From positions 384,001-448,000 of the forward strand of contig JBMNIW010000012.1 of assembly GCA_050951325.1 (NCBI GenBank): DNA of 64,000 nt, written 5' to 3'. The translations under genes and the position numbers were made by a program. Positions 51,777 to 64,000 of this stretch are shown in pieces (position 1 is the first letter of the stretch; every line of letters starts with the position of its first letter). Below the pieces are notes generated by a model. That model was given only the letters and a program-made list of their open reading frames with translations, did not search any database and was not told the origin of the DNA. The DNA is from Clostridia bacterium (GTDB lineage Bacteria; Bacillota; Clostridia; UBA1212; DUPL01).

Positions 51777-52076
51777 ATGCTGACAGGAAAACAGAGAGCA
51801 AATCTAAGAAAACTTGCAAACAATCTAGATACAATAATACAAATAGGCAAAGGGAATATTGAGCAGCCCTTGATAAAACAGGTTGATGATGCCCTTGCAG
51901 CAAGAGAATTGATAAAGGTAAGGGTGCTGACTGAAACCTCTGCACTGACACCTAGAGAAGCTGCCGACATTTTGGCAGAAGCAACTAACAGTGAGGTTAT
52001 TCAGGTTATCGGAAGCAGAATAGTGTTATTCCGCAGGAATCCGGAAAAGGGCAAATACGATGAATATATCAATTAG
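51777..52076 (+). CDS. yhbY: YhbY/CRM RNA-binding protein
   Basis: LTGKQRA.LR, IGK, ELIKV, QVIG..IVLFR. Confidence 0.93.
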   Translation: MLTGKQRANLRKLANNLDTIIQIGKGNIEQPLIKQVDDALAARELIKVRVLTETSALTPREAADILAEATNSEVIQVIGSRIVLFRRNPEKGKYDEYIN

Positions 52077-54160
52077 TCCTTGAAGAGAAGTTTCTCCAGT
52101 TCTTCTACACTGATAACCGGTGTGTGACATACTTTATTGTGGCAAAGATAATACGTTGTATTAGATTTTTTTGCATCGTAGTTTTTTGTATACGGTGCAA
52201 TTTTTTCTATTGTTTTTGCATTGGCCGGAGTCTTTACAATACAGGTTACATTGTACAAACTATGTTTTGCAAAAAGTCTCCTTATATCCGACATATCGAC
52301 TTCATCGCCAGGCAGAACCACAATCAGCTCCTTGGCAGGATAAAGATTCATCATGCCAGCCATCATGCCAAAAGAATGACCTGAAGGATAATGTTTTGTA
52401 GTCCTTGCGATAAATTGAAGCTGTTTGTACGCCAACTCTTCCCAATAAGGGTCAGCAGTTATTTTAGCAAGCAAGTTTATAATATATGCAGCAACGGAGT
52501 TTCCGGAGGGAAGAGCGCCATCGTACGTTTCTTTAGGACGCAAAAAGAGTGTCTCGTTTTGGTCCGAGTAAAAGTAGAAGCCTCCATCTTTTTCATCATA
52601 AAACTTCTTAACCATGTTTTGTGCATATGTTACTGCCTTAACCAGCCATTCTACTTCAAAAACCGTTTGGTAAAGGGTCAAGTAGGCAAATATGGTGAAT
52701 GCATAATCATCCAAAAAACCATCAACATTCTTTGTTCCTTCCCTGTAGCTTACATACAGATTGCCTTGACCATCAGACAAGTGGTTTTCAATGAAACATG
52801 CAGCATTTCTGGCAAGAATCAAATATTTCGGATTCTGGAGAACGGAATATGCTTTTGCTGAAGCTGCTATCATTAATGCATTCCAGGCGGTAAGGATTTT
52901 GTCATCAAGTGAAAGGCTCGTTCTTTGTTTCCTGTATTCATACAGCTCAGCAAATATTTCATTAAATCTGGCTCCTATGGGATGGACTTGATCAATGAAG
53001 TTTGCATAGTTCGGGTTGTTTATCAAGTTTGGTATGCTTTTTCCTTCAAAGTTTCCTTCTTGTGTTATGTCGAAGTTGGCGTTAAACAGTTTTCCATCTT
53101 CCTCTCCCAGAACCAGAATGGTTTCAGAAGGTGTAAATACATAGTATTTTCCTTCCACACCTTCGCTGTCAGCATCCTGAGCGGAATAGAATCCTCCTTC
53201 AACGCTGACCATTTCCTGGGAAATATATTTAAATGTTTTTACAACTATGTTCTTGAATAACTCGTTTTTTGTTATCTGATATGCTTCAAGGTATGCCATT
53301 ATTAATAGAGCGTTGTCGTATAGCATTTTTTCAAAATGAGGAAGCAGCCATTCATTGTCTGTTGAATATCGTGAGAAACCTCCTGCGATATGATCAAATA
53401 TGCCTCCTTTGTACATTTGTATGAGAGTATTAGCAGCCATTTCAATAGCCTTTTTGTCGTTTTCAAAAACACCATATCTTAAAAGAAATAAAAGATTGTG
53501 TGGCGTTGGGAACTTGGGTGCACTTCCAAAGCCTCCATGTTTTTCGTCATATATGCTCGCAAAGTGGTTTCTAGAGTTGTGAAAATACTCCAGGGTCATT
53601 CCTTCCTTGCCGGATTCCACAGCTTGACTTTCCAAAATTGCATTGATTATTTCATTGCCTACTCTGTGTAAAGATTCCTTGTCTGTTTGCCATTTCTCGG
53701 CAATAGTTGCAAGAATGTCAATAAGTCCGTGTCTTCCGTACTTGGTTCTCTTTGGAAAGTATGTGCCTGCATAGATTGGTGCTTTGTCTGGTGTAAGGAT
53801 TACCGTCAAAGGCCATCCACCTGAACCGGTCAGCATGGTGCATACATTCATATACACCATGTCAATGTCAGGTCTTTCTTCCCTGTCCACTTTAATGGAT
53901 ACAAAATATTTGTTTAATAGGGAAGCAACTTCTTCATCTTCAAAGGATTCTTCCGCCATTACATGGCACCAGTGGCAAGTCGGCTAATAACAGCAAAACT
54001 ACGAATACCCAATCGAAAGAAAGATTGGCTTCCCTTCTATTTTTGCTTTCTCAAAAGCCTCGTCTCCCCATGGAAACCAAGACACAGGATTGTAAGCATG
54101 TTGTAAGAGATAGGGGCTTTTCTCGTTTATCAATCGATTGGGTTTTCTATTGTTTGCCAT
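52073..54160 (-). CDS. yyaL: YyaL/SPATA20 thioredoxin-domain protein interrupted by an in-frame 21-nt insert with two TAG codons (recoded gene or pseudogene)
   Basis: [15 protein letters not shown]...IFLSIGYS, insert at 53981-54001, then [36 protein letters not shown] in the same frame. Confidence 0.85.
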
Positions 54161-54232
54161 ATTACCACCTCCCTTAAAAATCAAAGTTATTCTTTTATAA
54201 TAATATATCCTAAAATCACAAATTTAAAGGCT

Positions 54233-54447: not shown

Positions 54448-54535
54448 CCAGTTAGCACCTCCAATTTTCTCTGTATCATTGGTAGTATAACACATAATTT
54501 TTGGAGAGTTCAGAAACATAGCAATCAATTAATAT

Positions 54536-54593
54536 AAGGAGTAACAATAAGAACCTACACCTTTAGTAGTTAGGTTCTTATTGTTTGTCTTTT
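54536..54593. repeat. Left hairpin repeat of the primase cassette
   Basis: 15-bp stem AACAATAAGAACCTA / TAGGTTCTTATTGTT; inverted copy at 56772-56827. Confidence 0.9.
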
Positions 54594-54789
54594 CTATAAA
54601 AAAGTCTATGTCAAAATTTGATTTCAATAACACAGTGATTATAATGCCAAAAAATCGATAATGGAGTCGCTAGCCTAAACGGAAAACACCTTGTTTTAAA
54701 GCGGAAATTTATAAAAATACTACGGAAAATGTTTCAATGTAAGCGAAAATCATAAAGTTTAGTGACTCCTCTCAAAAGGAGGAGTTATT

Positions 54790-56766
54790 ATGAATTCAAA
54801 AATTAACTATGAAAATCGCAAAGCATTGGACATTTCAGATTTTGAATTTTTATCCCTATTTAAAAAAGAGAATGAAAAGGTATATTTCAGGCTTATTCAG
54901 GAAGAAAATCATATAGCGAAAAACTTTGATTGTCTATTAAGCCTAGATAACGATTTAGAATACCCGCTTATGCAAAAGATTTTTCAAAAGTATCAAAATC
55001 AGGGTTTTGGGATTTATTTTGTAGTAAATAGTGGTGGTCAAAAGAAAAAGTCTATTAAACGGATAAATGCACACTTTATTGATATGGACTTTGGAAAGGT
55101 TCCAAAAATTATTAACGGGATATCTCTAAAAGATTCTAAGGGAAAAACTATTTATGAATATAGGAGTAAAGAAGAAATAGAAAAATATAAAATAGATTTT
55201 TTAAAGAGGTTGGAGAATTTTAAACTGAACCCAAATGTTATTGTAGAAACCAAAAATGGTTTCCATGTTTATTGGCTGCTTGACTTTGAGAAGACCCAAA
55301 ATTTATATTCATTTCCTCCACTGCAAGAAAAACTTATTGAGTATTTTGCTGCTTCTGAAGAAAGAAAAGAGCACGCTGATTCCAGCGTAAAGGATATAAG
55401 CAGAGTTTTAAGGCTAATAAACTATAAGCATTTAAAGAATCCCAAAGACCCCTTTACTATAAAGTGTATATATCTAAATACTAATATTAAATACACTCAG
55501 GAAGATATTGCCTCTGCTATAGGATACAATATCATTGAGTTGGTTAGTAATACGGAAATTGTTGAAATGAAATCAGTTGCTGTGAAGACTGAAACCAGCA
55601 ATTCGCCAAAAGAAAATATCGGGATTTCCCCCTCTTCAGTCTTGCAGTATGAAGATTTGATTCCGTTTTTAAAGCAACAGGATTTAATAGACTATCTTGG
55701 CATTGATTCAAAGCCTAATATAAACTTTAAATGCATATTTCATAATGACAATAAGCCCAGTGCTGTAATCAAAAATAATAACGGATACTATAAATATTTT
55801 TGTAATTCGCCTAACTGTACTTGCTATCACGAAGGTAAAGGCTTAGATATTATTGATATTGTTGAAATTAAAGAGAACTGTGATACTTCAACGGCTATTA
55901 AGAAATTGATTGAAGATTTTCATATTAAATTGGAAGATTCAACTTGGATAAATGAACAGAGTAAAAAATTCGAAAACAATATCAAACTTTTAGAGCAACT
56001 TACCCAAAAGGAAGATGAGTTTCCAAGCCTTAACCGAATCATAAAGTTTGGCTATCCCATACTAATGCACATTTTGGAAATTGGAAAGAATAACATCAGT
56101 AATCGGTTCTTTAGCGTAAGAGGAGAAAGCCTATTTTTCTTCTCTAACCGTTATTTAGCGAAAAAAATGAATAAAAATGTTTGTAACATAAATAAATATA
56201 TTAATTTGTTCTGCACATTAGGGCTTTTGCGCAAAATCCCATACAGAGATGTAAATCAAAATCTAAGAAAAACTGCTCTTCAACTTTCAAAAGAACATTC
56301 TCATAATGGTATATCCTTCTACACCATTCCTGACTATAGTGAGGCTTTTAAAACAGCAAATGAAAGGGCAGAAATAATGCTGGAATACCGCTTTACTATA
56401 AAAGGTATGAGCAAAAAATATATAGAAAATTGCTTTGGAGAAGAGTTTGCTAATCAAATTTATCATGTAGACATAAAGAGTAGTAAGAGAAGCGAGAACA
56501 TCAGAAACGCTATCGAAAAATTTATATTGCATCAAATCAAAATATATGGTTACTGTACTAAAGATATGATTATGACTCATAGATTAGTAGTTGATAACTG
56601 CTATATAAGAAAAGGAGTAAAAGATTATGAGTTTAGGAGAGTCCTCCCTGATATCATGCAAAAATACGACCTCGTATACAGAAAGGCAAATAAGAATATA
56701 AATAAAAAACTTGGGATTGATACAAAGAAATATTTAATTGTTCAGAGGAGCATTCTAGATGATTAG
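54790..56766 (+). CDS. RepB-type DNA primase domain plus CHC2 zinc finger replication protein
   Basis: FIDMD, VETKNGFHVYW, D.SRVLRL...H.K primase motifs; CIFHND..PS...YFC...C zinc finger; AAGGAGG RBS. Confidence 0.75.
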   Translation: MNSKINYENRKALDISDFEFLSLFKKENEKVYFRLIQEENHIAKNFDCLLSLDNDLEYPLMQKIFQKYQNQGFGIYFVVNSGGQKKKSIKRINAHFIDMDFGKVPKIINGISLKDSKGKTIYEYRSKEEIEKYKIDFLKRLENFKLNPNVIVETKNGFHVYWLLDFEKTQNLYSFPPLQEKLIEYFAASEERKEHADSSVKDISRVLRLINYKHLKNPKDPFTIKCIYLNTNIKYTQEDIASAIGYNIIELVSNTEIVEMKSVAVKTETSNSPKENIGISPSSVLQYEDLIPFLKQQDLIDYLGIDSKPNINFKCIFHNDNKPSAVIKNNNGYYKYFCNSPNCTCYHEGKGLDIIDIVEIKENCDTSTAIKKLIEDFHIKLEDSTWINEQSKKFENNIKLLEQLTQKEDEFPSLNRIIKFGYPILMHILEIGKNNISNRFFSVRGESLFFFSNRYLAKKMNKNVCNINKYINLFCTLGLLRKIPYRDVNQNLRKTALQLSKEHSHNGISFYTIPDYSEAFKTANERAEIMLEYRFTIKGMSKKYIENCFGEEFANQIYHVDIKSSKRSENIRNAIEKFILHQIKIYGYCTKDMIMTHRLVVDNCYIRKGVKDYEFRRVLPDIMQKYDLVYRKANKNINKKLGIDTKKYLIVQRSILDD

Positions 56767-56771
56767 TTTCA

Positions 56772-56827
56772 AAAAAGGCAAACAATAAGAACCTAACTAC
56801 AGTAGTGGGTTCTTATTGTTACTCCTT
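56772..56827. repeat. Right hairpin repeat of the primase cassette
   Basis: AACAATAAGAACC / GGTTCTTATTGTT stem; 20-bp and 22-bp blocks are exact reverse complements of the left copy. Confidence 0.9.
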
Positions 56828-57075
56828 TTCTATAAATACCTAGACTAATAAAGAAGTTAGCAATCTTTTTATTCTCAAATAATATAATATAAGGCATAAA
56901 TTAAGCAACATTCCGATTGGGAACAAACAATCACAACTATCTACTTCCAATTAATTCATATTTGATTATATTATCTACTTTGTATATTTTTATATTTAAC
57001 ATTTGGATTTGTATATTGCTGATGTTTTTTCTTCTCCCATATTCAAATGAAAGTGTTTAAAAGAACTATAGTAAT

Positions 57076-57699
57076 TTATTCAATATTTGCTTGATTAAGG
57101 TTATTCTCATATTCCTTAACCCTTCTGTAAAATGTATTTCGCTTCATCATACATAATTCCATCGCTTTAACTGCTGTTATCTTTCCTGATTTCCATTGCT
57201 TATATGCTTTTACAAAATTATCGTCTATAATATGTTTTGGTCTTCCGAAGCGAACTCCTTTTGCCTTTGCTACGGCTATTCCCTGGCGTTGTCTTTTCCT
57301 AATATTATCTCTTTCTCTCTCTGCAACAAAACTTAGAACCTGAAGTACCAAATCACTTACAAAATTACCTAATGTGTCCTTATATTGAGTAGTATCTAAT
57401 AGGGGCATGTCTAAAACTTTAATGTCCGCTTTGATTTCCTCTGTTATTTCTCTCCACTCTTTTAGAATTTCTCTGTAATTTCTTCCGAAACGGTCAATTG
57501 CCTCAACTATCAATAAATCGCCCTGGTTTAACACTCTTTTCAATAGTTGATATTCTCTCCTCTCAAAGTCTTTGCCGCTTTCTTTATCCATAAAAATAAA
57601 ACGCTCATCGACCCCATGTTTTTTCATCTCTTCTATTTGCCGTGCCTCATTTTGGTCCTTAGAACTGACCCTTATATACCCATAGATTCTTCTATTCAA
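57076..57699 (-). CDS. Small serine recombinase (resolvase/invertase family)
   Basis: YIRVSSKDQN..RQ, DRFGR, RQRQGI..AK..G..FGRP, C-terminal HTH. Confidence 0.95.
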   Translation of the reverse strand: MNRRIYGYIRVSSKDQNEARQIEEMKKHGVDERFIFMDKESGKDFERREYQLLKRVLNQGDLLIVEAIDRFGRNYREILKEWREITEEIKADIKVLDMPLLDTTQYKDTLGNFVSDLVLQVLSFVAERERDNIRKRQRQGIAVAKAKGVRFGRPKHIIDDNFVKAYKQWKSGKITAVKAMELCMMKRNTFYRRVKEYENNLNQANIE

Positions 57700-57736
57700 T
57701 TTCTCATCATCCTTTACTAAGGAAATCTAAAGACTA

Positions 57737-57846
57737 TTTCAAAAGGTTGCTGCACTTTTGAAACATATTTCAAAAGTAAAAATTAACTTTTTGAAATGCA
57801 AATTTTGACCTTATTGACCTGTTTCAAAAAGTGTAGTTTTTGAAAC
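57737..57846. promoter_or_regulatory. Putative res site with three dyad subsites
   Basis: TTTCAAAA...TTTTGAAA dyads at 57737-57763, 57768-57796 and 57821-57846, upstream of the resolvase. Confidence 0.75.
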
Positions 57847-57972
57847 TATAAGATACTATTTCTTTTAATACATGAACCAAGTAATACAAACATTGAATAT
57901 GTAAAAGATTTAGAGATAAGTGGTAAGTTTGACCTTATCCTCTTATCCCTATACACCCTTATCCCTACTTTT

Positions 57973-60346: not shown

Positions 60347-61075
60347 TTAATCTACAATATCAAATATCCCATTTTTACACCTATAAACTTTACCTGAAAT
60401 CCTGTTCGGGTCTTTATCTATCATAATCAATGATTCAATAATTTTTATATATTCAAGACAATATCTAGCCACAATTAAAGTAGTTGACGAGGGGATTGCA
60501 AAAATATAATCCCGTCCTACTTTTTTTAATATCTGTTTTTGTATGGAATCACTAAGTAGGAACGATGCATTGAAATCCGTAGTATATCGCAAACAGTATA
60601 AATTTAGCGCATCATCCAATCGTACCAGTATGTTGGAAAGTTTATTCAGATTTTTCCATGCTGCCTTTTTCATTTTTTCAAAGTCTACATCGTCGCTAAA
60701 TAGTATGAATCTAAAAACTTCTCCGATATCCGAAGCATAAAAAATATCTACATCAGCAAATGCATGTTCTCTATAAAACCCTAAATCCTTTTCCCCTTTC
60801 CCAAAATCCCTGCTCTTAAGCAGCGGAAAAACATTGTTGTAGTCAATCTTAAATTTATATTGACTCAAAATATCATTAATAATTTTAATATATGATGCTA
60901 AAGTTTTCCCATAATCCTTGGTCTCTTGGTATTCCTTATAAATACTACTAACAGGTATAGACACACTGTTTGGGTTAGACTCCACAATAACATACTTTCC
61001 CTGGACCCTTGCTATAGGAAATGTTTTATTTAAATCAAAAATTATCTTCCTTGAAAAATCAGCAATAGTAAGCAT
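60347..61075 (-). CDS. DUF1444/YtpQ-like protein
   Basis: VFPLLK, IFYASD.G..FRFI, AWKNL, ASFLL, FAIPS; AAGGAGG RBS. Confidence 0.6.
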   Translation of the reverse strand: MLTIADFSRKIIFDLNKTFPIARVQGKYVIVESNPNSVSIPVSSIYKEYQETKDYGKTLASYIKIINDILSQYKFKIDYNNVFPLLKSRDFGKGEKDLGFYREHAFADVDIFYASDIGEVFRFILFSDDVDFEKMKKAAWKNLNKLSNILVRLDDALNLYCLRYTTDFNASFLLSDSIQKQILKKVGRDYIFAIPSSTTLIVARYCLEYIKIIESLIMIDKDPNRISGKVYRCKNGIFDIVD

Positions 61076-61246
61076 TACCTACCTCCTTAATAACTCTATT
61101 AAAACACAAAAAGCATACTCTCTTAACTTATTCCAGCATCTACTGGCTGTAAGAGAATATGCTCTCAATCTGTATACTTATATTTTACGTTATACTATAG
61201 GCAAGCGCAATCTTTTTGTTTTAAATTTAATACTGTGAATATAAAC

Positions 61247-61825
61247 TTACTCTGTAGGTTCAATTATTTCTAATCTAAAGTTCCAACCTTCGCAGGACAT
61301 CAATATCCTACCGAATTCCTCCAGGCTGTATTCCAGTCCATCTATGATAAATTTGGGCGTTCTGTCATATCTATCATCCCCTTCAATACGCCCTTCTACT
61401 ACATTCCCCTTAATAGAGACAAGTTCTTGTCCTTGAATTATTCCTTTCCTTATAAACTTTTTTGATAACCCTTTCTTTATCTTTTTATAAAGTCTTTCCA
61501 GAGCATCATTTGAATCTTCTTCAAAATCCTGATGTACTTCAAAAGAATAGCCTATTTTATTTTCGCCTATAAACTCTACCGCTTCCCAACAAATACCTGT
61601 TGGGTTTATCATTTTTCCTATTTTAAATCGATGTTCTATTCCATCGCAATCTATAAAAGTAACCTCTTTTTCAAAATCTTTATAGTCTTCAAAACCAAGC
61701 ATATTAGCCGCAAACTCGTTGTAGCAGTCTCTACATATAGATTGGGATGGCTCGTCTTCTTTTATAGTTAAGACTACCATTCCAAAACCGCTTGCCACTC
61801 TTTCACACTTTTGACACCTATTCAT
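61247..61825 (-). CDS. Hypothetical protein with N-terminal CxxC...CxxC zinc ribbon
   Basis: CQKC...CRDC; C-terminal IDG..YS.EEFG..L...EGW.F. Confidence 0.75.
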   Translation of the reverse strand: MNRCQKCERVASGFGMVVLTIKEDEPSQSICRDCYNEFAANMLGFEDYKDFEKEVTFIDCDGIEHRFKIGKMINPTGICWEAVEFIGENKIGYSFEVHQDFEEDSNDALERLYKKIKKGLSKKFIRKGIIQGQELVSIKGNVVEGRIEGDDRYDRTPKFIIDGLEYSLEEFGRILMSCEGWNFRLEIIEPTE

Positions 61826-61854
61826 GCAAATTCTCTCCTTAAAACCGACTGGAA

Positions 61855-62748
61855 TTACTCTTGAATCCTATATTTTTCTATCATCCTCTTTGAAATAGAA
61901 GTTAACTGCTCTTTTACTAATATCTTTTCTTTCCATCTGTCAGGGATAGCACCATAGCCATAATACACTCCAGCCATTCCGCCGGTAATTGCGGCTATAG
62001 TATCCGCATCTCCTCCAAGGTTGGCCGCTTCACACACAGCATCCTCGAAGGAAGAAGTATTAATAAAACACCATAATGCACATATCAATGTATCAAGCAC
62101 ATATCCCGTTGGCTTCAGTTGGTCTTTTGACAACTGAAATACCTGCTTATATTCTGGGTACTTTTCAATATATTCCCTAATAGGTGGTATTTTAGACTTA
62201 CCATTGAGATACTGGTAAACTAACAGATTATAAAACTGGCAGGCATCTGTCGCTTTTTGGTCATAATGGGTAAGAACGCTTTGCGAAGCAGTTATCACCA
62301 GCATTTTTTCAACATCATTATAATATAATGCAACCGGTAAACACCTCATAAGTGAACCATTGCCGGCGCTCATACCGCCTGTTGTTTGATGAGCGTAATA
62401 GGCTGTTTTCATCCAGTCATTGCTTCTTTTATACTCGCCAAGTGCAATTCGGATAATGTTGCCGATATCTTTAGGTTTACTATCATACCATTTAATAAAG
62501 TGTTTTCCGATATCTTCGATAGGATTCTCTGGGTTGTCCAGGATGCCTTCTGCGACAGCAATAGTCATCATTGTATCGTCCGTCACTTCCCCAGGTTCCA
62601 GGTCCCAACAGCCACCACCGATAATGTCTTTTAAGTATCCATACTTTCTTTTAATCTCATCCTTTAACATAAACTCAAGCGTTGCACCCAGTGCATCACC
62701 GCAAGCGACCCCAAAAAGCCCTCCAAGTATCCGTTCATATCGATCCAT
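61855..62748 (-). CDS. ADP-ribosylglycohydrolase (DraG/ARH family)
   Basis: GDALGA, TDDT, GNGSLMR, TH, GGDADT. Confidence 0.93.
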   Translation of the reverse strand: MDRYERILGGLFGVACGDALGATLEFMLKDEIKRKYGYLKDIIGGGCWDLEPGEVTDDTMMTIAVAEGILDNPENPIEDIGKHFIKWYDSKPKDIGNIIRIALGEYKRSNDWMKTAYYAHQTTGGMSAGNGSLMRCLPVALYYNDVEKMLVITASQSVLTHYDQKATDACQFYNLLVYQYLNGKSKIPPIREYIEKYPEYKQVFQLSKDQLKPTGYVLDTLICALWCFINTSSFEDAVCEAANLGGDADTIAAITGGMAGVYYGYGAIPDRWKEKILVKEQLTSISKRMIEKYRIQE

Positions 62749-62771
62749 TCAGATTCCTCCTATAACATCTG

Positions 62772-64000
62772 CTAAGGCCTGCTGTTTAACTTCTCATAAG
62801 TCTCAATCAGCATATACTCCATAAGAGCATTCTTAAATTGCTCATCGTCTAAAATACGGGTAAAGAATGCCTGGTTCTGGTCCATCCTATCAATCACTTT
62901 ATTAATAAACACTTTCTCAAAAGCAAGCCTAAAGTCGTCAATGGTATTTGTTTTAGCCTTTTGAACCAAATCTTCATCAGCAGCAAAATCCTCTTTTATT
63001 TGCTCTACCGATAATTGGTCCGCTTTTGTGAAATTAGTTCCAAACCGCTTATTAAGACGCTCAATAATGCTGGACAGATATTCTTCCTGTTCTTCCTTTA
63101 CCCCAGTTCCTGCAAATTTTACAGGTGTAACTGGTACATTTTCATCATCTGGGGTTAATGAGATGCTCCCTTCAAAGGTCTTTTTGGTAGTATAATACTC
63201 TAAAGCAATTTCATCAGCAAGATGAACAGTCGAGCCTTTTTCCTTTGGAAGTTTTTTAAGCAGATATGTTAAATATACATACAACTTATGGAGTTCAACA
63301 TCTTCAAAAGGCGTTATTTGAAGAATAAAGGAATAAAGCCTTATGTATTTCGTCGCTTGGCTACTGAAATCTTGCTTTCGCTGTTCCTCTAGTTTCTTAA
63401 ACCTCTCTACGGCTATATCTATCAAATGATTTAACACTGCCCTATCTTTGGAAGTCTTTTTATCCTTGGGCTTAAAATAAATATAAGCAAACTTATCTAA
63501 TTCCTCTTTGAGATATACACCGTAAGCATGTAGTTGAGTTTCAATATCATAGAGCAAGTTAGGTTCTGTAACTTCTTCCACAATAGTTGCCTGATAATAG
63601 GGCTTGAAGGCTTCCTGAATATCCTCTGCCTTATTTACAAAGTCAAGGATAAAGGTATCATCTTTTCCTGCACATTTTCTATTGAGCCTTGATAAAGTCT
63701 GTACTGCCTTGACTCCCGACAACTTTTTATCGACATACATGGTATGTAAAAGAGGCTGGTCAAAACCTGTCTGGTACTTTTCAGCAACTAAAAGTACCTG
63801 ATATTCATCCGTGGCAAAGCGTTCTGGAAGTTCCGATTCCTTAAAGCCATTCATATCACTTTCTTTATAATCTACACCACCGTCTTTTACCGTTCCTGAA
63901 AAGGCTACTAATGTCTTCATATCCTTATAGCCCTTCTTTTTGATATATTCATCAAATGCATGTTTATAGCGTACAGCATGGAGCCTGGAACTAGTTACAA
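62772..64000 (-). CDS. hsdR: Type I restriction endonuclease subunit R, C-terminal part
   Basis: SRLHAVRY, VAFSG, KYQTGFDQP.LHTMYVDK, AVQTLSRLNR; frame open to window end. Confidence 0.93.
   Translation of the reverse strand, partial: VTSSRLHAVRYKHAFDEYIKKKGYKDMKTLVAFSGTVKDGGVDYKESDMNGFKESELPERFATDEYQVLLVAEKYQTGFDQPLLHTMYVDKKLSGVKAVQTLSRLNRKCAGKDDTFILDFVNKAEDIQEAFKPYYQATIVEEVTEPNLLYDIETQLHAYGVYLKEELDKFAYIYFKPKDKKTSKDRAVLNHLIDIAVERFKKLEEQRKQDFSSQATKYIRLYSFILQITPFEDVELHKLYVYLTYLLKKLPKEKGSTVHLADEIALEYYTTKKTFEGSISLTPDDENVPVTPVKFAGTGVKEEQEEYLSSIIERLNKRFGTNFTKADQLSVEQIKEDFAADEDLVQKAKTNTIDDFRLAFEKVFINKVIDRMDQNQAFFTRILDDEQFKNALMEYMLIETYEKLNSRP

Follow-up and report, generated by a model that had tools for sequence, protein, structure and literature searches.

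Paired inverted hairpins around a predicted primase-type initiator gene in a mobile island of Clostridia: candidate origin or priming sites

Why does a single gene lie between two inverted copies of the same hairpin? The question is raised by a 64,000-nucleotide (nt) stretch of a Clostridia bacterium (assembly GCA_050951325.1, contig JBMNIW010000012.1, positions 384,001 to 448,000; G000:C12:384001-448000 of its own genome of 3.08 Mb), hereafter called the window. The gene for a predicted primase-type replication initiator of 658 amino acids (aa) (54790-56766, + strand) is the lone open reading frame (ORF) between an imperfect palindrome, hairpin L (54536-54593), located about 246 nt 5' of the start codon, and its inverted copy, hairpin R (56772-56829), which begins 6 nt past the stop codon and has a short T run behind it. 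We give an even chance to the reading that the hairpins are the cognate origin, or the initiator-binding or priming sites, of a new primase-type Rep family. That the gene encodes the single-protein replication initiator of an integrative mobile element seems to us about equally probable and improbable.

The hairpins and the protein between them

The core of hairpin L consists of ACAATAA (54544-54550) and TTATTGT (54578-54584). An initial annotation of the window had described two inverted hairpins around a single 658-aa gene, and its coordinates proved exact: positions 54536-54555 are the exact reverse complement of 56808-56827 (20 nt), 54566-54587 are that of 56779-56800 (22 nt), and TTTTCTATAAA directly follows both hairpins (54590-54600 for L and 56826-56836 for R). 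Other than the arms of L and R, the window has no exact inverted repeats of at least 20 nt spaced by up to 3 kb. Although two or three mismatches interrupt each hairpin, L and R are almost exact inverted copies of one another; the alignment of the two scored 38 as an inverted copy and 28 as a direct copy. Alignments of about 185-240 nt that might have pointed to a longer inverted repeat beyond the hairpins owed their score to the hairpin itself.

Both strands of both hairpins were predicted to fold as single-stranded DNA at -12.5 to -16 kcal/mol, compared with about -4.5 kcal/mol for shuffled sequences (z -4.3 to -6.9). The stems are AT-rich, the loops are 13-20 nt long, and L and R are each flanked by an A-rich stretch on the 5' side and by a T run on the 3' side. 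A 13-mer core, AACAATAAGAACC, matched the genome (3,082,766 bases) only at the four hairpin arms, with no match of the reversed control pattern; in four other host genomes, it occurred at the hairpins and in one extra single match. These counts ruled out that the hairpin is a genome-wide dispersed repeat. A search of Rfam over hairpin R gave just a sub-threshold microRNA match (23.4 bits vs 47). One 263-nt contig of the RNA run X15 extends across hairpin R (56621-56883); neither its strand nor DNA carry-over can be judged, and no inference was drawn from it. Just to the right of hairpin R, at position 56879, 5 nt of the window are absent from the contigs of all four public runs.

The protein was predicted to consist of an archaeo-eukaryotic primase (AEP) domain (residues about 1-254), a disordered linker (255-282), a DnaG-type CHC2 zinc-binding domain (about 285-386), and two winged helices (about 392-534 and 561-658). 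Its description as a RepB-type primase with a CHC2 zinc finger was upheld by fold matches and invariant residues, Pfam itself giving only a sub-threshold CHC2 match (PF01807, 20.4 bits vs a cutoff of 24.9). No Pfam match to PF16793 (RepB_primase) or PriCT was obtained with the 658-aa protein, and a 37%-identical homolog has a precomputed PF16793 match. In PHROGs, an unannotated family covered residues 292-646 and weak primase families covered residues 140-267. The PDB sequence search with the protein returned nothing below E 0.09.

The AlphaFold model of the full protein had a mean pLDDT of 86, with the linker disordered. In a Foldseek search, the N-terminal domain matched the cyanophage S-2L PrimPol (6zp9_A, E 3.4e-7, TMt 0.76) and RepB' (3h25_A, E 4.3e-5, TMt 0.68), in agreement with the proposed structural closeness to RepB'. 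In an alignment of 24 homologs with 32-81% identity, D98, D100, H159, D197, R208, C315, H318, C338, and C343 were invariant. The AEP motifs I (DxD, D98 and D100), II (H159), and III (D197) thus stand in order on an AEP fold, and the four ligands of a CHC2 zinc site (C315/H318/C338/C343; C-x2-H … C-x(2-4)-C) stand on a zinc-ribbon fold. When residues 285-658 were modelled separately (pLDDT 89), the zinc domain matched the DnaG zinc-binding domain (1d0q_B, Z 8.1, root-mean-square deviation 3.7, 92 aligned residues; 2au3_A, Z 7.6), and the matches of the winged helices included a plasmid RepA (4pta_D). Foldseek gave no match at E 0.001 or lower for the C-terminal model. Neither a helicase nor a P-loop domain was found in the protein by Pfam, PHROGs, NCBIfam, or the structure models.

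Relatives of the protein are named in databases as "hypothetical protein" or "RepB-like DNA primase domain-containing protein", and our literature searches, which covered publications apart from their supplements, returned no description of the protein family or its hairpins. No relative of the protein was found in viral contigs, and phage records gave two weak partial matches.

Hairpins among the relatives of the gene

Homologs at 74-82% identity were found in Thermoanaerobacterium, Clostridium, Haloimpatiens, Paratissierella, Tissierellaceae, and Lachnospiraceae genomes, and more distant homologs in many metagenome contigs; the loci compared are referred to by L numbers. Among relatives with at least 39% identity, the upstream hairpin was kept in 28 of the 30 loci for which the upstream flank was available and the downstream hairpin in 28 of the 32 with a downstream flank; both were present in 20 of the 24 loci with both flanks. 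The counted loci include many near-identical copies and represent about eleven distinct lineages, not 30. The core began at fixed positions: -239 to -308 relative to the start codon and +18 to +23 past the gene end. The hairpins travel with the gene down to 39-49% identity. The downstream copy was missing in L005, L019, L020, and L039, and the gene of L005 is broken by an insertion sequence (IS).

A different arrangement was observed in a clade of 27-28% identity. Its members had this hairpin on neither flank, and a long palindrome with the same core was present inside the intact ORF in five of the six loci, where it lies in the coding region of residues about 216-285 (the linker). The sixth locus, L045, had a different palindrome at the same intragenic place. 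A search with the core-pair pattern gave no match in 41 loci matching the AEP domain only. Homologs of 24-27% identity are carried by three plasmids (13-18 kb), near recombinase and ParA genes; on the Priestia plasmid (13.3 kb), a GC-rich hairpin precedes one with an ACGATAA/TTATTGT core. As for circular plasmid forms, terminal overlaps were found in none of the 19 whole-contig loci.

Thirty-seven distinct hairpins were compared. Fourteen of the 23 stem pairs changed on both sides, and pairing held in 90.6% of cells, compared with 78.3% in shuffles and 46-58% with the partners slid. The seven core pairs ACAATAA/TTATTGT were invariant in this set, which had been gathered by a pattern that requires the core. 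Two motif-free scans again gave the same hairpins as the outstanding palindromes. Furthermore, L and R of one locus had subclade-specific stem and loop variants in common.

The orientation of the two copies was less constant. In each of the 13 loci of the clade with at least 74% identity, R is an inverted copy of L. The 47-49% clade was mixed: R had the direct orientation in L022-L025 and, marginally, in L035, and the inverted one in L026 and L036. Between near-identical loci of this clade, the inner portion of the downstream hairpin is turned around (direct in L022-L025, inverted in L026), the kind of trace that recombination between the arms, or template switching, would be expected to leave. 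Such loop flips between close relatives indicate that the inverted arrangement is not obligatory. Accordingly, the earlier emphasis on an inverted twin was not supported, since the downstream copy may be replaced (L019, L020, and L039), direct (L022-L025), or absent in favour of a single intragenic copy (27-28% clade).

Some copies of the primase gene itself are broken. The Thermoanaerobacterium copy (L005:6001-8167) has a frameshift and an IS110 insertion, and two-piece ORFs were found in L021:2998-4977, L036, and L039:2980-4938; not all copies are functional.

Candidate roles of the hairpins

Several features suggest that the protein has its cognate cis site in the hairpin, which would most simply be an origin or priming site: the fixed core with its covarying stem, the strict linkage to the protein family, the location upstream, downstream, or inside the gene, yet always with it, the presence of separate terminator-like hairpins where these are needed, and the sharp borders of the module described below. 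From these we infer binding, priming, and origin function. Once the surrounding island has been excised, the fixed ACAATAA/TTATTGT core, in the form of an extruded hairpin or of a symmetric duplex site, would be recognised by the winged-helix and/or zinc domains. The AT-rich stretch that separates hairpin L from the leader with its repeats would then open, the AEP domain would lay the first primer, and a host helicase and polymerase would take over. Hairpin R probably also terminates the transcript of the primase gene.

A more specific scheme, which we consider quite unlikely as a whole, can be drawn for these proteins, in which an AEP primase, a DnaG-type zinc domain, and two winged helices are joined without a helicase. 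Such single-chain initiators would replicate excised Clostridia islands from the ACAATAA-core hairpin, with one copy at each gene edge. Each strand would present the same hairpin, and priming would give two outward leading strands in the manner of IncQ strand-displacement replication, here with a single protein; the 2.3-kb replicon itself would be swapped among islands.

If the origin reading is true, the 2.3-kb block, common to elements in at least six Clostridia genera at 74-82% protein identity, would be a compact portable replicon made of one gene and short cis sites. It would explain how such islands of defence genes persist after excision, and it would offer a candidate vector backbone for anaerobes in which genetic work is difficult. 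The few primase-type initiators with known recognition sites would also be joined by a helicase-less one, in which an AEP primase is combined with a DnaG-type zinc domain. The fixed core makes protein-DNA recognition directly testable.

Among the closest known systems is plasmid RSF1010 (IncQ), whose RepB' primes on two inverted hairpins, ssiA and ssiB, on complementary strands (PMC8567376); both hairpins lie together inside oriV, and the RepC initiator and RepA helicase are needed. The window system resembles RepB' (structures 3h20 and 3h25) in having an AEP-fold primase and two similar inverted hairpins. However, RepB' has a helix-bundle (PriCT-1), whereas the window protein has a DnaG-type zinc domain and two winged helices, and no helix-bundle was among the listed structure matches for the part after the linker, which was modelled as these three domains. 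Motif II of the RepB' family, as characterised in PMC5862659, has Gln in place of His, whereas His159 is invariant in the window family. With His in motif II and no helix-bundle among those matches, the window protein is not a member of the RepB' family. The sites differ as well: ssiA and ssiB share one oriV, whereas the window hairpins are 2.2 kb apart around the gene. The two inverted hairpins here may be single-strand initiation sites on complementary strands, but their orientation is variable among relatives. An IncQ-type oriV further involves RepC with iterons and the RepA helicase; neither a RepC-like initiator nor a RepA-like helicase was found among the scanned ORFs, a subset of the ORFs of the element located in 47-64 kb of the window and in the stretch L096. 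The analogy with RSF1010 extends to the working principle only. Bacterial AEP genes in general are described as typically located on integrated elements (PMC5862659).

Another comparison is provided by pRN1 of Sulfolobus, the replication of which requires a 100-nt stem-loop 3' of the AEP rep gene orf904; similar stem-loops adjoin phage homologs, according to PMC4234260. Like the window system, pRN1 combines an AEP-type protein carrying a winged helix with a stem-loop beside its own gene, the structure of which is conserved among relatives, and the replicon is also found integrated in chromosomes. Unlike the window protein, ORF904 carries a superfamily 3 (SF3) helicase, and the window protein, being without a helicase domain, is not of the pRN1 type. 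The pRN1 stem-loop is described as conserved in structure and not in sequence, whereas a fixed 7-bp core, usually in two copies, is found here; in addition, pRN1 is archaeal. ColE2-P9 Rep is likewise a single plasmid protein of the AEP superfamily, which recognises the origin, makes the primer, and uses the host helicase and polymerase. The ColE2 origin is a short asymmetric duplex site rather than a hairpin pair, and ColE2 Rep has a PriCT domain. It is named as an AEP-type initiator in bioRxiv 10.1101/2024.09.03.610885, and the window protein gave no sequence match to it (Pfam PF03090 did not match). The single-strand initiation hairpins of G4-type phages are priming signals for DnaG. The window system shares with these a DnaG-type zinc-binding domain (the 1d0q_B match, Z 8.1) alongside hairpin DNA, but its catalytic domain is AEP and not TOPRIM, and its sites are double-stranded chromosomal palindromes and not part of a single-stranded phage genome.

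Several observations weigh against an origin or priming role. The winged-helix matches (Z 5.3-6.7, among them the staphylococcal plasmid RepA, 4pta_D, and SCCmec LP1413) fall where the tool itself warns of a non-specific common arrangement, and no helicase or helicase loader was found among the same scanned ORFs. L037 and L041 were without the upstream copy in the stretch examined, L019, L020, and L039 carry an unrelated hairpin at the downstream place, the downstream copy being dispensable, and two of the three plasmid homologs had no such hairpin in the scan. The fixedness of the core is partly an ascertainment effect, and the likeness of L and R could have arisen through gene conversion. 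The orientation, inverted in 15 loci and direct in five (one of them marginally), weakens the idea of one site per strand. Finally, hairpin R, with A-run and T-run flanks just past the stop codon, resembles a bidirectional terminator, and the repeats in the leader of the gene might be the real initiator sites.

These repeats lie in a conserved leader (54661-54750, + strand) between hairpin L and the gene, downstream of a promoter-like site, TTGATT-16-TATAAT (54618-54645, + strand; 10 of 12 matches). TATAAT was invariant in all seven aligned leaders, and TTGATT was kept in the six that cover that site. The leader starts with an invariant block, ATGGAGTCGCTA (54661-54672), followed by four CGGA(A/G)A repeats starting at 54680, 54702, 54723, and 54744 (spacing 21-22 nt); the motif was also found in the 49% clade (L022), at 18-nt spacing, and in L041 (39%). 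The repeats may be iterons, an RNA motif, or the site of an RNA-binding regulator. Next to them, a leader hairpin (54760-54790, + strand) pairs the Shine-Dalgarno sequence GGAGGAG (54778-54784) with an upstream CUCCUC. Its 13-pair stem appeared in both the minimum free energy and the centroid structures, and its sequence was conserved in all seven leaders. A search of Rfam with the leader gave no family match.

The hairpins could serve for control only, bound by the protein or by a host factor for autorepression or for looping or handcuffing that limits initiation, with the AT-rich region and the CGGAAA leader repeats as the real origin; we consider this unlikely. Two identical sites bracketing a gene would suit looping, and the repeats and the hairpin sequestering the Shine-Dalgarno sequence are conserved over 39-100% protein identity, the repeats standing between the promoter and the ribosome-binding site and being present in L041, which has no hairpin L. 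However, the repeated motif is just 6-7 nt, which is short for iterons, and it lies in the transcribed leader beside the sequestering hairpin, where it may act in RNA. Moreover, the 27-28% clade keeps the palindrome.

A slightly less probable, and likewise doubtful, explanation is that the hairpins are only intrinsic bidirectional terminators or insulators fencing the primase gene, and that their likeness results from duplication and gene conversion and not from protein recognition. The 6-nt distance of hairpin R from the stop codon, the A-rich 5' flank and 3' T run of both hairpins, and the unrelated hairpins in the downstream place of L019, L020, and L039 are as this explanation would have it, and the stem covariation suits an RNA stem equally well. 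On the other hand, the stems are AT-rich and the loops 13-20 nt long, and a consensus scan for intrinsic terminators (G+C-rich stem, short loop, and U run) called neither hairpin. A T run follows most hairpin copies of the clade with at least 71% identity, but is weak in L035 and in the downstream copy of L022, which count among several copies without a proper run, and the intragenic copies have none. Clades with just 27-49% protein identity share the unchanged 7-bp core, and since the same-core palindromes in five of the six loci of the 27-28% clade lie inside an intact ORF, a terminator role is not expected there. In the window, hairpin L sits between divergent ORFs, 5' of the predicted promoter. 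Furthermore, the integrase gene upstream of hairpin L in L008 is followed by its own GC-rich hairpin and T run, and the gene on the Priestia plasmid is likewise already provided with a GC-rich terminator-like hairpin.

The module, its neighbours, and the mobile island

Homology between the window and six of seven genome loci begins at 54524-54527, and in the seventh, L005, at 54536. On the other side, homology with L006-L010 breaks at 56829-56839 and then resumes patchily to the right. Because of these sharp borders and the varying surroundings, the block of hairpin, promoter, gene, and hairpin, reaching about 15 nt beyond L on the left and about 10 nt beyond R on the right, is a discrete module of 2.31 kb, and the compact origin-plus-initiator unit envisaged in the initial annotation agrees with such a block. 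Its contexts include an integrase on the left (L008), an 88%-identical integrase on the right (L016), a resolvase on the right (the window and L021), and cargo genes on the left. In L006-L010, the element begins about 1.25 kb further to the left with a 304-aa tyrosine integrase.

These borders would also be accounted for if the block were a movable cassette, the hairpins being either places where the neighbouring tyrosine or serine recombinase acts or breakpoints of palindrome instability. Every context would then join the block within 15 nt of a hairpin, and in all comparisons the homology blocks indeed stop at most 15 nt outside the hairpins. A recombinase gene adjoins one hairpin in the window, L006-L010, L016, L017, and L021 and is close to the rep gene in all three plasmids, and the loop is flipped between the close relatives L022-L025 and L026. 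Nevertheless, we regard this explanation as very unlikely. The hairpins are kept whichever type of recombinase adjoins them, and also in L005, whose upstream flank showed no recombinase gene over about 6 kb; the distance between the arms, 13-20 nt, is unlike that in Xer/dif or resolvase sites as these are commonly known; and neither a target duplication nor an empty site was observed. Three DNA runs yielded collinear contigs, with no joint of inversion or excision between the hairpins, although contigs cannot show rare forms. Selection to keep an origin together with its initiator, as the origin reading would imply, also explains the sharp borders.

The variable neighbour on the right in the window is a gene for a small serine recombinase of the resolvase/invertase type (57076-57699, - strand; Pfam Resolvase, E 5e-27), by which the adjacent resolvase reported earlier was found to be real. 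Besides the window, L009 and L021 carry this gene (the window protein is 88% identical to that of L021), and L006, L007, L008, and L010 do not. Relative to the latter four loci, the gene forms a 0.9-kb insertion (56840-57752) right after hairpin R. The repeats 5' of the resolvase gene (57778-57840 and 57794-57938) lie partly in sequence common to the relatives without a resolvase, and the res site noted earlier is therefore unproven. An invertible segment driven by this resolvase was not supported, as L006-L008 and L010 keep both hairpins without it and the Logan contigs of the three DNA runs (X2, X5, and X9) pass collinearly through both hairpins with no joint, within the same limit on rare forms; an integron attC or Xer/dif-like site appears improbable, the arm motifs and spacing departing from the consensus sequences of such sites.

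The suggestion that the hairpins are the ends of an element was rejected in view of the sequences around them. At 54-62 kb, the G+C content is about 31%, down from about 39%. An exact direct repeat of 14 nt, ACATGGCACCAGTG, is found at 53961-53974, where it forms the core of the left attachment site, and again outside the window at G000:C12:468199-468212. A DUF255 reading frame is split between the two repeat sites, at a CxxC-coding motif, which places the ends of an element of about 30 kb there, with the hairpins inside it. The left element end agrees with contigs of two other runs, which part from the window sequence at 53967-53970, and the element is collinear with its relatives as far as C12:456985. 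The module thus lies about 560 bp inside the left end of the island; in the relatives, the element is about 24 kb and the integrase is outside the hairpins.

A gene for a large serine recombinase of 490 aa (L096:14499-15971) is located near the right end of the element, as is an IS21 (IstA/IstB, L096:10460-12701). This recombinase is likely the integrase of the window copy, which is without the tyrosine integrase of its relatives. As judged from sequence, the direct repeats, the recombinase, and a target gene that would be restored on excision are those of a site-specifically integrated mobile element.

The interrupted DUF255 (thioredoxin-like) gene comprises 52073-54184 of the window (- strand) and G000:C12:468199-468377. 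The element carries a diverged version of its N-terminal 61 codons (53999-54184; 73% DNA identity to the displaced original), which is joined out of frame with two stops, and excision would restore the reading frame of the CxxC region.

The element of about 24 kb is 95-97% identical in L006, L008, L009, and L010 (with L093-L095), which belong to Clostridium sp., Haloimpatiens, Paratissierella, and Clostridium homopropionicum; such identity across genera indicates very recent transfer between them. Its cargo consists of an ImmA/helix-turn-helix pair, DUF1444, UDG, DUF7685/7686/7713, a type I restriction system, and GmrSD. The cargo of the window element (60347-63920 and L096:1-9000), which looks like a defence island, comprises DUF1444, DUF7685/7686/7713, an ADP-ribosylglycohydrolase, the R, S, and M subunits of a type I restriction system, and GmrSD.

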